A stretch of DNA of 64,000 nt from Bugula neritina (taxonomy: Eukaryota > Animalia > Bryozoa): positions 27,961,504 through 28,025,503 of the forward strand of contig OZ037765.1 of the NCBI GenBank assembly GCA_964035545.1. Reading direction: 5' to 3'. This document shows, piece after piece, positions 10,587-19,500 of this stretch. Position numbers and translations under genes: made by a program. The notes beneath the pieces were generated by a model. It was not told the origin of the DNA. It did no database searches and saw only the letters and a list, made by a program, of their open reading frames with translations. How positions within the stretch are numbered: the first letter of the stretch is position 1; every line of letters starts with the position of its first letter.

Positions 10587-13500
10587 ATGGTCTACATGGC
10601 AACAGTACAGTTAGCAGAGATATATTTCTATGTAAACAAAAATTTGGAAAGTTCAGCTTCTACTATAAACTGCCAATGCTCTAAAGTATCCATCAGGTGG
10701 GAAAATATAGATATCTGATATTCATCCCTGTGGCTCTAAAATGATATAATGTATGCTTTGCTACTCAAATGTCGGTGTATGAATAAGTAAAAATAAGATA
10801 TTGTGGTGGTTCGTGGAACTACCAGCAGCACAACATGTAGGGTCGCGTAATTGACCCGGAACAATGGATAGCCAATTAGCGTATTTGATAGTTAGCAGCA
10901 ATTATAGTTTCCCGCTGCTAAGTCAGTCGAAGCTAGAGTGTCAAATAGATTAGATGTATAAATTGTCTGGATGTATTGTATCGTTTTTATAATGTATAAT
11001 TGTGTGTAAAATATATACTCGTTCACTCGACTTATCCTGGTGCAGTTCTATGGCAAATAATTAGACTCTCTGGATAGCATATCAACCCTAAATCTGAAAA
11101 ATATAACAGTGGTGGCAGCGGTGGGATAGTGCATCCAAGATGGAGACTGAAAACGCTGGAACTCAACCACCGGCAGTAGAAGGTGAGCGTAGAGACAATG
11201 CCTGTTAACCATGTAGTAGAAGAGCGAAGGGTTCCGCGAGAACTAACTGAAGACCGCTACCGGTTAAAGGCGCCCACCTTCACGGGTGAAGAGGAGGTGG
11301 AACAATTTATCCAAGAGTTTAGCGACGTAATGGACGTCGCCCAGTGGCCCCCTAGGGTGGCCTTGCTGAAGCTTAGAATGGCATTGATGGACAAAGCCAA
11401 GTCTTATGGGCTGGGCGTAGACATTGATAATATCTTTGCTTCTCTGCGGGCCCGCTTCGGCCTCTCTGCTACAGATGCCAGGGCCCGATTGCAGAGGTTG
11501 CGGCGTGATCCCCGCACTCCGCTGCGGGAGCACGCCGCCGCGGTCATGAAGCTGGCACAGATCGCGTACAGCGACTTGCCCCCAGTCAACCGCGAGAGGT
11601 ATACCCTCGACGCTTTCATAGCATCTGTCGACGATCTGGGTCTCCACCACCAGTTTCTAGCTAGGGGAGTCACCACCGTTGAAGATGCTCTGACTGAGGG
11701 GGAAGCTTACCTCCTAGCTAATCAAATGCATAAAAGTCGCGGAAGCTCCCGTCAAGTGGAGATAGACCGCGCAGACACGGCCGCGGGACAAGGGGAGGAA
11801 ACCCCCGCCGCGGCTGCCGTGTCCCAGTTGGCGACGGCATCGAAAGTCACTCAACTGACAGACATGCTAGCCAAGCTGATAGCAACACTGACACCACAAA
11901 CCCCAGTGAGTACCGCCCCTGAGCCCATGCGGCCACCGGCGCCGCCACAGGGAGAAACAGTCAGTTTTTGCTGGGAGTGCGGAAATCAAGGGCATTTCCG
12001 CCGATACTGTCCCTTCCTAAATCAGGGGTTAAACTACCGCGGCCCGCAGATGTTCCCACCTCCTGCGGGCCGACGAAACCTCCAGGGAAGAAGAAACGCA
12101 GGTCACCCAGACGGGTACCGCGTACTGGCAACCAACAGTGGCAACAGCCACGACGGACCAGCAAGGGGCTTCGCCCCGCGGCTGCCTTTTCTATGCCCCT
12201 TCACAACAGATTCGCAGGGCTACAAGCCCAAGAATCTGGATGGGAGCCCACAAAGGTAGCCGGGAATCTAGCCTCGGCACCCCCGAGGCCTACCTACCAC
12301 CGCCCCAAGAGACCTCCTTCGCGACCCAAAGCGAGGGAGGTACTCCCTGCGAGAGTGAGGCCTGAAGAGAGAGTTCAGGTGCAGCCCCATGGGAACAGCT
12401 ATTTCTTGCCCGGTAAACTGGAAGGCAAAGCTGTTACTTTCCTCATTGATTCGGGCTGTACCACGAACCTCTTAAGCCGCCAACTCTTCGACACCCTCAG
12501 TGCTAGGGTCAGGGGCGAGATGGAATCATACGAAGGGGAGTACGGCACCCTAGCTGACGGGTCGTGCCTTCCCTTCTATGGTATAATTGAGCTGACGGGA
12601 CGAGTCCGTGATCAAACGATCCAAGAGACGTTCATCGTCAGTCAGCTCAAGGAGGACGCCATCCTCGGGATGCCATTCCTAAAACGGCACGGATGTCACA
12701 TAGATTTTAGCAAATCTGCAATGATGATGTCCGGGCGAGAACTCGCCTGCGTCGATAAGTTCGGCCGCCCTTTAGTGGGAGGTGTGCAAGTGGTACGCAA
12801 CCGTATCATACCAGGCCGCTCCCGGGCTACCATTCACTGCAGGGTGAATAATAGCCGGATCTCTGGACTCGGGGTAGTTGAAGGCGCGCACGAAAAGATC
12901 CAACTTGCCAGCAGTCTGAATCAGCTGACTGAGCAAGGGGAGATCTTAGTGCAGTGCGTCAACCCCTTTACCGAGTCTATCAAGCTTCCGGCTGGGTCGA
13001 TGCTGGGCCGTTTTCACTCTGTTCAGGAGGAAGACGTAGGCCCATCGCTGGGTGATGCGACAGAGGCACTTCCTCAGTGCCCTACTCAAGGGCGAGGGGC
13101 AGTCCCCGCACATCTCCGGGAGTTGTATGACACAGCCTGTAGCGGCTGCGCGAGTAACAGAGAACGCCAAGTTATGGCTAAGTTACTACGCGACTACGGT
13201 GATGTGTTCAGCAGCGGAGGGCATGACGTGGGACTGACTGAAATTGTCAGACACGAAATACCGCTGACTGCAGGGACAGTCCCTGTCCGGCAGCCCACAC
13301 GCAGGCTGGGGCCGGAGAAAGAGAAGGAGGTTAGCCGACAAGTACGGGATCTTCTGGACCAGGGACTGATAGAGCCCGCCCATAGTGCGTGGAGCTCGCC
13401 AGTCGTACTGGTCCGGAAGAAAGACGGCAGTTGGCGGTTCTGTGTGGATTACCGCAAACTCAATAGCGTAACCATACAGGACGCCTACCCTCTACCTCGT

Positions 13501-16500: not shown

Positions 16501-19500
16501 CGGGTGCACAAAGTGTTAATCACGCACCCCAACCACGTTGCTCGATCTTTTCATACGCTGATGCAGTCAGGAGTAGACGTGTTTATAAGCAGTAGTTCAA
16601 ACCATTTCACACATTCAGTATGTCTTACGACAACAGATCGTGGGGTGAGTTAACTATATCTTAATACGAAACTAGATTGCATCACTCAGCTCCGACTCAC
16701 TGAGTCAATCGAGCTGGAGATAGGTTAGTGAAATACCGTAGTAAGAACTCAGTTTGACTTAGAGATTTTTATAATCTCATTGCAATACGTGTTCTATCTG
16801 ACTATTCACTACCATAAATCTCTACGAGGTAACTGAATTAGGAGTTGCCAAGCTATTCAAGCTGACAACACGGCAGTGTACTGTATTAACACTGTTGAAA
16901 CTTTTTCAGATTACACTCGACCCGCTACAACCAGGGTACGGGATAGAACACTTCCCGCTCCGCATCCGGAGGAGTATGCTAGTGGTGACCTGAGCCACTA
17001 CGCCGCCGTTGGCGGTGGGTGTCTCCACAAACAGAGGAAGAAATAGAAACGGCCTGGGGGTCCAGAGGACGGACGAGATGCCAGATTTGTGGTGAAGAAT
17101 GCGCCTCTCACCGCTCCTTGAAGCTACATGTCAATGCTCATCTCCTATTGACATTCTGCCCCTGCGGGTACAATGATGTTTATCCCTACCCCGTCACCAG
17201 ACATCGAGCGACGGGCTGTTTCCCTGGAGAAAACTACGTGGTCGACGCTAAGCTCTACCCGGAGTTCCTCACACTTATACGACCCCTGGTGAAGAAGGCA
17301 ATGCTGTTAGCCGTTCTGACCTCGGGGTTCCAACGTGTATTAGACAACGCCCGCCAACAATCCCCGTTGGTGTCTGACCGCCCTCAGATTACATACACCC
17401 CCGAGGAGTTTACATATCCAGAAGAAGGAGAGATCTCCCCTACCCCGACGAAGAGATGAACCAGGTCCCCCAGTCCCCCCTTGCGCCGCAGACGGACACC
17501 GTCCCCAGACCCAGTCCGCCTGGCTACAGTAGAAGAACGCCTCCTGCGATTACAAGAAGAATTCACCCAGCTGGCACCAGATCTACTTAATACTACAACA
17601 GGACTCTTCCAGCTAAAGGGATCCGTATGCCGTATGAAACGGAAACTGCGTACATGCCAAGCCAAGCACCGGCGTGCCCAACAATGACTCTAGTTCTGCT
17701 GCCGGAATAATCCGCAACTTCCTCCTCTTGGGGGAACCCAGGACCTCGTGCAAATGCTTGACTGCTTGACAGGTTATTCCTTGTCTAATACCACAGCTAG
17801 CCGGTATTCCTCGTCTATAGCTGGTCAATTGTAGGTAACGGATTGTTATAATGACTCTGTCTATTATTATGTCTCTTCCTGTATATTATGTATTATTTTT
17901 GTCCACTGATGTATGCGGTTACTAATGAATGTTTTTTATATATATATATCAGAAAGAGGGTTTTCTGCTGGTGGGGGCGGTGTGGTGGTTCGTGGAACTA
18001 CCAGCAGCACAACATGTAGGGTCGCGTAATTGACCCGGAACAATGGATAGCCAATTAGCGTATTTGATAGTTAGCAGCAATTATAGTTTCCCGCTGCTAA
18101 GTCAGTCGAAGCTAGAGTGTCAAATAGATTAGATGTATAAATTGTCTGGATGTATTGTATCGTTTTTATAATGTATAATTGTGTGTAAAATATATACTCG
18201 TTCACTCGACTTATCCTGGTGCAGTTCTATGGCAAATAATTAGACTCTCTGGATAGCATATCAACCCTAAATCTGAAAAATATAACAATATGAATTATAT
18301 AATTTGGAAAAATAAATATTTATAATTATTCATAGTAAGGTTTGATTTTTCAATGCGTTTTTTGTTGTTGCTTTTTTAGACACTTGATTCCTAGCCCTAA
18401 TATATAATTTTTATCTGCATAGCATTTGGTTACTGATATAACTTTGAATAGTCATGTACTTTCCTGTTGTGTACTGTAGTGATAGCTGGTTATGCAGTAA
18501 AGGTGAAAAAATCTGTGGCGATGAAGAAGCCTACTATACTGTAAGTTGATACATACTTTTATGTCTCTAATGCTTTTAGTTTTTAGATTGATAACTTTTA
18601 ATTTAAAATATTCTTTATCCTAGCATGATCTACATTTTTGGTGCTGCTCTTTGTAGCATAGTTATAATGCGTGTTCCTCTACTCGAAATGTTTTACGAAA
18701 GTAATGGCATGTGAAAATAACAAAAAAGTAAAACATCATGTTCATCATGTTTACGGTATAATTTAGGCTGCTTGTTTATACTAATATTTCCAATGATTTA
18801 TGTTAACTGTAAATTTTTGGAGCTTGCTATGCTTCTGAAAACAGAGACTACTGAGTTATGGCATGGTTGAAAGTACATGACATTTCTTCACGTTTATGAA
18901 ACCTATAGCTAAAGTTTAGTCGCTACGTGGTGTTTTTTGTGTGAATGCAATATTGCTCAACAATGCATAAATTATTGCACACACCCACAACACACACACC
19001 GCTCACACGCACACGCACACACCGCTCAGACATGCACAAGTGCTCAATTGCTCAAACATAGTTTTATTACATCTTACAAGCTTGTCTTGTATTTTTTGAA
19101 TTGACTAAAATGCATCAATTTCTTTGTTACTTAGAGTGATTCCAGTAGCAATGGAGAACCGAGTGACTGTGATGAAGATCATATAGATGATGCTGTCGGT
19201 GTAGAAAGTGGTGAAATATCTCCACCCAACTCATCAGCAGATGATGAAAGCAGCAGCAGCAGCAGCGAGGTTGAGCTTGAAGAATGTGATACTTTAGACA
19301 AAGAAGAGCTTGAAAAAGAGGCTCAGTTGATGAAAGAAATGGGCTTGCCATTGTCATTTTCTGCAAACTCTCTCTCGAGATCTGGAAAAGTAATTTATCC
19401 AATTGTGTGTTTACAAGAGAAGTAATATTAGCTGGACTTGTAACAGTTTGTCTGCTATTAGGTATAGGATAGGTTGTATCTGCTGTGGTTCGAATATACA

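Follow-up and report, generated by a model that had tools for sequence, protein, structure and literature searches.

A conserved two-zinc-finger gene in the env position of a bryozoan Ty3/gypsy retrotransposon, very probably expressed by splicing from a Gag leader

Introduction

The regulators of complex retroviruses, exemplified by foamy Tas, HTLV Tax and Rev/Rem, are made from spliced RNA, and the env gene of the avian sarcoma and leukosis viruses (ASLV) carries the first codons of gag as its leader. In chromoviruses, the integrase bears a chromodomain, a reader domain situated at the C-terminus of Pol. Errantiviruses express env from a spliced subgenomic mRNA (excerpts of PMC13669377 and PMC13524379). 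Third open reading frames (ORFs) that do not encode Env are already known, as is a spliced regulator: the excerpted accounts describe non-Env ORF3s of the GDSL, DEDDy, CC and TM types in long terminal repeat (LTR) elements of bdelloids (PMC5408684), and CERV, a protein that regulates its element, Cer1 (PMC10309623). Here, we describe the third gene, hereafter ORF3, of a Ty3/gypsy element from the bryozoan Bugula neritina. The element spans positions 10802–18287 of a 64,000-nucleotide (nt) stretch, hereafter the window (GenBank assembly GCA_964035545.1, contig OZ037765.1, positions 27,961,504 to 28,025,503 of the forward strand), in which the coordinates below are counted. ORF3 occupies the env slot behind pol; it is a real, conserved gene and not an Env, and in this family it is very probably expressed by splicing a donor in gag codon 15 to an acceptor at 16909.

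A conserved zinc-finger gene in the env position

ORF3 is about 260 amino acids (aa) long and has two predicted exons, the second of which lies at 16910–17687 (+). In the window copy, this exon is interrupted by a frame break near 16988 and a premature stop at 17457–17459, the single indel and single stop that a sequence-only reading of the locus had called. The same reading had described a perfect C2H2 finger followed by a second, atypical one, and both are where it placed them. They form the core of a conserved domain (approximately 17016–17330, +) composed of a W-x-x-x-x-T helix, finger 1 (C-x2-C-x12-H-x3-H, 17079–17141), the CxC-H-C finger 2 (C-x-C-x12-H-x4-C, 17157–17219), a VD strand and a final helix. 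A variable, proline-rich linker (17330–17516, +) connects the domain to a C-terminal heptad helix with a basic end (17517–17684, +), which is a predicted coiled coil. The heptad-like tail noticed earlier is thus helical, and it ends at the stop codon at 17685–17687. The RS/P-rich basic stretch noticed beside it fared less well: it is present in the window, where it spans the premature stop, but the linker is RS-rich and basic in this subfamily only and the stretch is not kept across the family. A conserved RS domain, as in SR/RS splicing or export factors, was considered and rejected; the pattern occurs in 3 of 42 aligned homologues, one of them spurious, and is therefore real in 2 of 42.

Conservation of the protein was assessed with the window sequence as query, its lesions read through with X. 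Among 692 candidates, 106 homologues were found at E ≤ 1e-3, with 44–97% identity; the closest of them has an uninterrupted frame that starts in the acceptor region and continues to the end. In a close alignment of 43 full-length homologues, drawn from 55 with at least 200 aa, each of the eight metal ligands is present in 40–43 sequences, and the C-terminal helix is the best-kept block of the whole protein (0.88). That ORF3 is not an Env and has no transmembrane helix, as had been asserted from the window copy, holds for the family: the best 19-residue hydropathy window reaches 1.6 or more in just 3 of the 43 homologues, with a median of 1.23. The features of Env looked for in ORF3, namely a signal peptide, a transmembrane helix and an F/gB fold, are absent, and its confident domain model is that of a zinc-finger protein.

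The domain extends well beyond the close relatives. A profile search with it returned 137 matches at E ≤ 1e-3, of which 128 were new, and 78 of these 128 distant matches bear the strict two-finger pattern. Across a wider alignment of 94 rows, seven of the ligands are kept in 88–93 rows and the last Cys in 59; a W, a T, an I, a G and a V-D pair are conserved together with the metal ligands. The heptad tail recurs in 24 of 45 distant proteins, compared to a mean of 2.2 in shuffles. No Pfam family corresponds to the domain: among 51 homologues, scores fell below the curated cut-offs, with the sole exception of the two-domain P0247, which reaches 27.7 bits for zf-C2H2_4 against a cut-off of 27. 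Finger 1 fits the classical C2H2 type (PF00096) by its motif and its modelled β-β-α fold, its Pfam score being 14.9 against a cut-off of 25.2. A pattern scan for further ORF3 loci gave 591 metagenome-contig and 126 viral-contig matches, 0 of which were confirmed. Runs X2–X7 hold small shares and are uninformative on habitat.

Splice signals and a probable shared Gag leader

The ORF3 frame has no in-frame ATG, as first noted from the sequence. It reaches back to an upstream stop at 16834, and the sole ATGs within 16820–17100, at 16976 and 17078, are out of frame. The putative acceptor, TTTTTCAG (16902–16909, with its AG at 16908–16909), closes the non-coding spacer that separates pol from ORF3 (16596–16909, +), and a branch-like TTAAC motif lies at 16886–16890; both signals were located as previously described. 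At the other end of the element, the sequence-only reading had paired ATG 11140 with a donor, AAG|GTGAG (11180–11187, +, GT at 11183). The two indeed delimit a first exon of 43 nt (11140–11182, +), that is, 14 codons plus 1 nt, which ends in phase 1, the same phase as the acceptor. Ranked by an approximate, self-made weight matrix, the GT at 11183 comes first among 432 GT sites of the element, and the AG before 16910 comes fifth among 573 AG sites. The second-best donor-like site of the element is at 16645, inside the spacer.

The donor is embedded in the gag codons E-G-E, which bears on a caveat raised earlier, that dropping a G at 11182 would turn ATG 11140 into the start of gag. Half of this caveat stands. 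ATG 11140 is the gag start, because the gag homologues P0108 and P0149 read from an 11140-type leader directly into gag; but no G has to be removed, and the donor is kept. The mismatch of frame between ATG 11140 and gag is confined to this copy, owing to a gag break downstream of the donor (about 11188–11205). An extra G at 11182 was ruled out, as no indel is found there among those listed in four runs, and the donor columns are kept in gag leaders. Throughout 11178–11187, neither a variant letter nor an indel is listed in these runs; the longer variant-free interval, 11178–11196, is weak when taken alone, since a 16-nt variant-free gap also occurs at 11216–11231.

Conservation of the donor codons is seen across the family. 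The leader is reached by 44 of 82 gag homologues, 43 of them with letters in the donor columns, which read E in 36, G in 37 (and S in four) and E in all 43. This last E is the sole invariant column, and the E-G-E triplet, located 2–16 codons past the Met, is the best-kept part of the gag leader. The G-to-S changes are of a kind able to keep the GT. Given that 11140 is the gag start and that the donor in gag codon 15 is kept, the first 14 residues of Gag would also be the first 14 of the ORF3 protein.

Probable spliced expression of ORF3

A spliced-leader route to ORF3 had been proposed from the window alone, and two comparative results, independent of each other, now support it: the donor codons are conserved within gag, and nature provides a fusion, P0028. 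The N-terminus of P0028 matches the gag protein P0136 in 14 of 14 residues and then continues directly with the D-H-T-R of ORF3. It has the makeup of the predicted spliced product at the exact junction, from a sister subfamily, and its record may stem from a transcript or from a re-inserted spliced copy. A spliced mRNA that shares Gag peptides, a trait of CERV, is thereby indicated here through a single natural protein. The other homologues are informative at the same position. Among the 23 that start with D/G-x-T-R, the residue just before this motif is S or L in 22, as expected of an intron ending in YAG; the remaining one is P0028 itself. In the window subfamily (P0002, P0003), there is no own Met near the ORF3 start.

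Several observations weigh against splicing. P0028 is one of 106 homologues, a single record on one contig. Of the homologues that begin with D-x-T-R, 20 of 23 have an own Met within 45 residues, which would let an internal promoter drive their expression. The 11182^16910 junction was found neither among the 15 joints listed of 133 nor in the two loose ends of the sole RNA run, and the 24 listed of 104 donor-side loose ends, in assembled contigs that are probably DNA, showed no junction either. These tests are weak: the runs are assembled contigs, and the sole RNA run comprises 20 contigs at a depth of 2–7. Conceivably, ORF3 is real but owes its expression to an internal promoter, P0028 arose by a chance deletion or by mis-assembly, and E-G-E reflects a constraint on Gag. 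The singularity of P0028, the Met of those 20 relatives and the want of junction reads are what such an account draws upon. It would nonetheless require a deletion to strike both consensus splice sites exactly, sharing only AG between them; moreover, the window subfamily lacks an own Met, and the G-to-S donor changes are able to keep GT. We regard an internal promoter as extremely improbable. Three outcomes had been named beforehand as telling against the splicing proposal: a gag-frame ATG devoid of a donor, no junction despite expression of the element, and an ORF3 either unconserved or already described for this clade. None of them was observed, the junction being poorly testable in these data.

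Possible function of the two-finger protein

The sequence-only reading cast the ORF3 protein as a nucleic-acid-binding regulator, and such a role would suit what is predicted of it. The protein probably binds nucleic acid through basic residues of the finger-1 helix and pairs through its coiled coil. Helix positions +2, +3 and +5 are K or R in 65, 54 and 61, respectively, of the 78 distant two-finger proteins. The domain of a distant member was modelled with a predicted local distance difference test score of 87 and a predicted template modeling score (pTM) of 0.76, as a helix, a C2H2 finger, a CxC finger, a strand and a helix. Its top structural matches are all two-finger DNA-binding proteins, and they are weak (best Z 4.2, root-mean-square deviation 3.2, 57 aligned; best Foldseek E 0.47). 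Compared with 48,161 chains, the model reached no Z ≥ 5, which is not by itself evidence of a new fold, and in the PDB and BFVD, searched with a full-length ORF3 model (pTM 0.30), nothing matched at E ≤ 0.001. A homodimer prediction, made without an alignment, scored 0.09.

As a whole explanation, we tentatively favor a spliced protein made of a Gag leader, two fingers and a coiled coil that serves as a nuclear, DNA-binding activator of its own LTR. With an intron removed between the donor in gag codon 15 and the acceptor at 16909, Gag residues 1–14 would lead into ORF3, and the product, a compact two-zinc-finger domain with a coiled-coil tail, would act in the nucleus. The default, spliced RNA would make the regulator first, which would then raise the output of full-length RNA by activating the LTR of the element. 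An LTR activator is favored because the protein, with its acidic N-terminus, two fingers with basic helices and coiled coil, is organized like a small transcription factor that works as a dimer. In 42 of 51 distant proteins, the segment N-terminal to the domain carries a net negative charge, a count that has no control. That LTR DNA is the target, and that the acidic part is an activating region, is possible, and we would stop short of calling it probable. Counting against it, the best inverted repeat of the LTR measures 8 bp, and as repeats of 8–9 bp are within chance, they provide no candidate binding site; the structural matches cannot tell DNA from RNA binding, because the PDB is rich in DNA-bound fingers; and the occurrence of the domain as a Pol tail in two lineages, described below, fits an integration tether equally well.

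The same spliced gene might instead act on RNA in the manner of CERV or Rev, binding the unspliced genomic RNA and either allowing its export or blocking its splicing. Its layout parallels that of CERV from Cer1: in the excerpted account, the CERV message is spliced and includes Gag peptides, its last exon is read in the frame of the polyprotein, and the protein has both a zinc finger and a leucine zipper along with a nuclear localization signal (NLS) (PMC10309623). This likeness is one of description, however: no homology to CERV was seen, no comparison aimed at it having been made, and the same excerpts assign CERV a C4 finger together with G and M domains (PMC10309623). The donor is the strongest GT in the element, so the unspliced RNA would need protection, and the tail of the ORF3 protein is rich in K/R (24–40% in most rows of the close alignment). 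The spacer before the acceptor (16596–16915) is more stably folded than 99 of 100 shuffles (z −2.4), but this is a single uncorrected test, and an Rfam search of the spacer returned 0 matches. Both the structural matches and the H-x3-H spacing, which is canonical, suggest fingers of the transcription-factor type, and errantiviruses splice env without a known Rev-like protein. On balance, an RNA-directed role seems somewhat unlikely.

Pol-fused relatives and bryozoan gene models

The 18-nt primer-binding site of the element (11110–11127, +), which we take to be of the tRNA-Leu type, served as a motif for a scan that retrieved 116 loci. In one of these, L061, the two-finger domain with its helical tail forms the in-frame end of a 1744-aa Pol (minus strand, ORF 85–5319). 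The identity of L061 to the window element is 73% in reverse transcriptase (RT), 61% in integrase (IN) and 41% in gag, and the L061/P0321 cluster has at least five members of 923–1717 aa with the full domain. A second lineage, the P0319/P0353/P0351 cluster (RT 76% to the window), would likewise have the domain at the end of Pol, judging from a 324-aa overlap of P0353 with P0319 at 100%. The Pol ORFs of L004 (5775–7628) and L007 (5567–7381), of 2168 and 2105 aa, end in long tails with two other zinc fingers, for which the domain profile gave no significant match. L005 (6503–7978) and L037 are more distant elements (RT 50%) that have the same primer site and a separate third ORF of 456–492 aa, with two Cys/His fingers and without a Pfam match.

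These fused forms raise the prospect that the domain is an integration-targeting module akin to a chromodomain, carried on the integrase by some lineages and provided in trans here. It forms the in-frame C-terminus of Pol in L061/P0321 as well as in the second lineage (P0319/P0353), and the Pol of L004 and L007 carries other two-finger tails in a like position. The window element, however, encodes ORF3 separately, past a stop at 16595, and no way for its product to enter the particle is apparent. The fused forms may themselves also be spliced, since weak phase-1 acceptor-like sites lie past the integrase tail: right past it in L061, reading D-H (rank 21 of 519), and just past it in L004 (rank 8 of 727). 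A tethering role is, in our estimate, unlikely. Donor-like sites after the first ATG were seen in 4 of 90 loci, three of them in phase 1; the phase-1 sites of L038, L056 and L066, which look unrelated (L038 RT 33%), are 9–13 codons past that ATG.

The domain is also found in five bryozoan gene models, namely P0199/P0322 and P0249 of Watersipora subatra and P0361, P0364 and P0365 of Bugula neritina, some with two copies. P0249, P0361 and P0364, which come from both genera, have an N-terminal motif in common, and this suggests that they are host genes. In a tree of 45 domains, the window family forms one clade (100/98), 20 of 42 inner branches are open, and host and element copies are not ordered. 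In view of the bryozoan gene models, the domain may be a captured host regulator, and the protein might serve as an anti-silencing or host-manipulating factor that acts on host promoters or defence proteins rather than on the nucleic acid of the element. The tree leaves the direction of transfer unsettled, and we consider such a host-directed role very unlikely. Among the distant domain matches, two lineages are the only ones with a demonstrated link to retrotransposons.

The element and its surroundings

The window copy is a young but broken full-length Ty3/gypsy LTR retrotransposon. The Gypsy assignment made at first sight is upheld by its LTRs, target-site duplication, primer-binding site and polypurine tract, and by the order of its pol domains in Pfam. 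The 5′ LTR (10802–11108, +) and the 3′ LTR (17981–18287, +) are each 307 bp long, begin and end with TG..CA and are identical at 307 of 307 positions. They are flanked by a 4-bp target-site duplication, ATAT, at 10798–10801 on the left and 18288–18291 on the right, and a polypurine-tract-like stretch immediately precedes the 3′ LTR (17970–17980, +). The gag gene (11140–12259, +) encodes one CCHC knuckle. The pol gene (11923–16595, +) follows in the −1 frame, which a ribosomal frameshift near 12026–12034 would serve to express, and encodes in order a protease, RT, RNase H, the zinc and core domains of integrase, and an SH3 tail.

Despite the identical LTRs, the copy has seven coding lesions, and gag, pol and ORF3 are all broken; those in pol are a stop at 14722–14724 and frame breaks near 15063, 15996 and 16301. 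Among other copies in run X1, length differs at four of the break sites of the window. Lesions combined with identical LTRs reflect either mobilization in trans from a defective template or sequencing errors. Separately, the proteins P0108, P0180, P0159 and P0173 consist of gag pieces joined to RNase H, integrase or protease pieces, and such gag-to-pol joints point to internally deleted copies of the family.

Beyond the element, exons at 19135–24864 (+) start about 850 bp past the 3′ LTR on the same strand as the element and presumably belong to a trimethylguanosine synthase (TGS1) gene, judging by motifs. We take 27885–28475 (−) to be a homeobox exon of the NK/HMX type, and a 667-aa ORF at 44233–46236 (−) presumably represents something resembling a Mutator-like DNA transposase.

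Significance and comparison with known systems

Complex retroviruses are marked by the regulators that they encode themselves, and among animal LTR retrotransposons CERV is the sole worked-out case that was found. The full-text literature, a scope that leaves Repbase, Dfam, GyDB and subscription journals outside, has yielded no account of the ORF3 domain, nor of any animal Ty3/gypsy element whose third gene is of the C2H2 kind; a prior annotation of the domain in Repbase, Dfam or GyDB is possible. A label of “env-like” given by position alone would be wrong for ORF3. The two-finger gene in the env slot offers a second, unrelated family in which to study how an element is switched on, how some of its RNA is left unspliced and how insertion sites are chosen. 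Its junction is defined, and its domain is of a size suited to expression and structure solution. The fused and split forms show how a domain at the end of Pol and a third gene made by splicing can change into one another, which bears on the origin of genes in the env slot. A broader view, doubtful as it is for now, would be of a wide, undescribed group of animal Ty3/gypsy elements that encodes its own sequence-specific transcription factor, in a domain that alternates between Pol tail and spliced gene and moves between elements and host genomes. Were this true, such elements would be “complex” retroelements outside Retroviridae, and bryozoans would keep the domain in ordinary-looking genes.

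Among cellular proteins, ASCIZ/ATMIN and the plant IDD/STOP1/WIP proteins have a C2H2 finger followed by a CxC-type finger, as does ORF3. They appear in the Atlas results for a bryozoan homologue and in those of Foldseek, all below the bars of these tools (TM ~0.2), and serve as a lead only. The regulators of complex retroviruses and the env of ASLV belong to Retroviridae, are unrelated in sequence and provide an analogy only. The chromodomain shares with the fused relatives its placement on the Pol tail; it differs in fold, and the ORF3 domain exists as a separate gene as well.

Closer parallels come from animal LTR elements. The bdelloid ORF3s are, in the excerpted account, non-Env, situated behind pol in Ty3/gypsy-like animal elements and said to be typically made from spliced messages (PMC5408684). 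They differ in that no zinc-finger type is among those described there, the word “zinc” occurring 0 times in the main text (PMC5408684). Errantivirus env, again from excerpts, resembles ORF3 in its post-pol position, conserved acceptor and 4-bp target-site duplication, and in a spliced route that is very probable for ORF3 (PMC13669377, PMC13524379). It differs from ORF3, which is devoid of a signal peptide, a transmembrane helix and an F/gB fold, and while the donor is conserved inside gag here, the excerpted comparison of four errantiviruses has none conserved (PMC13669377). The window element is a Ty3/gypsy element whose third gene sets it apart from the errantiviruses, even if it apparently uses the route of env.

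CERV of the C. elegans Ty3/gypsy element Cer1 is, in its excerpted description, a protein of 517 aa from five exons, with a C4-type finger and G and M domains (PMC10309623). ORF3, with about 260 aa, two predicted exons and C2H2 and CxC-H-C fingers, is set apart from it by description. Both are non-Env proteins, with a spliced mRNA that includes Gag peptides in CERV and very probably in ORF3, and the 3′ last exon of CERV lies in the polyprotein frame, as the domain does in L061 (PMC10309623). As far as the excerpts describe it, CERV also has a zinc finger, a leucine zipper comparable to the coiled-coil tail of ORF3, and a basic NLS candidate (PMC10309623).

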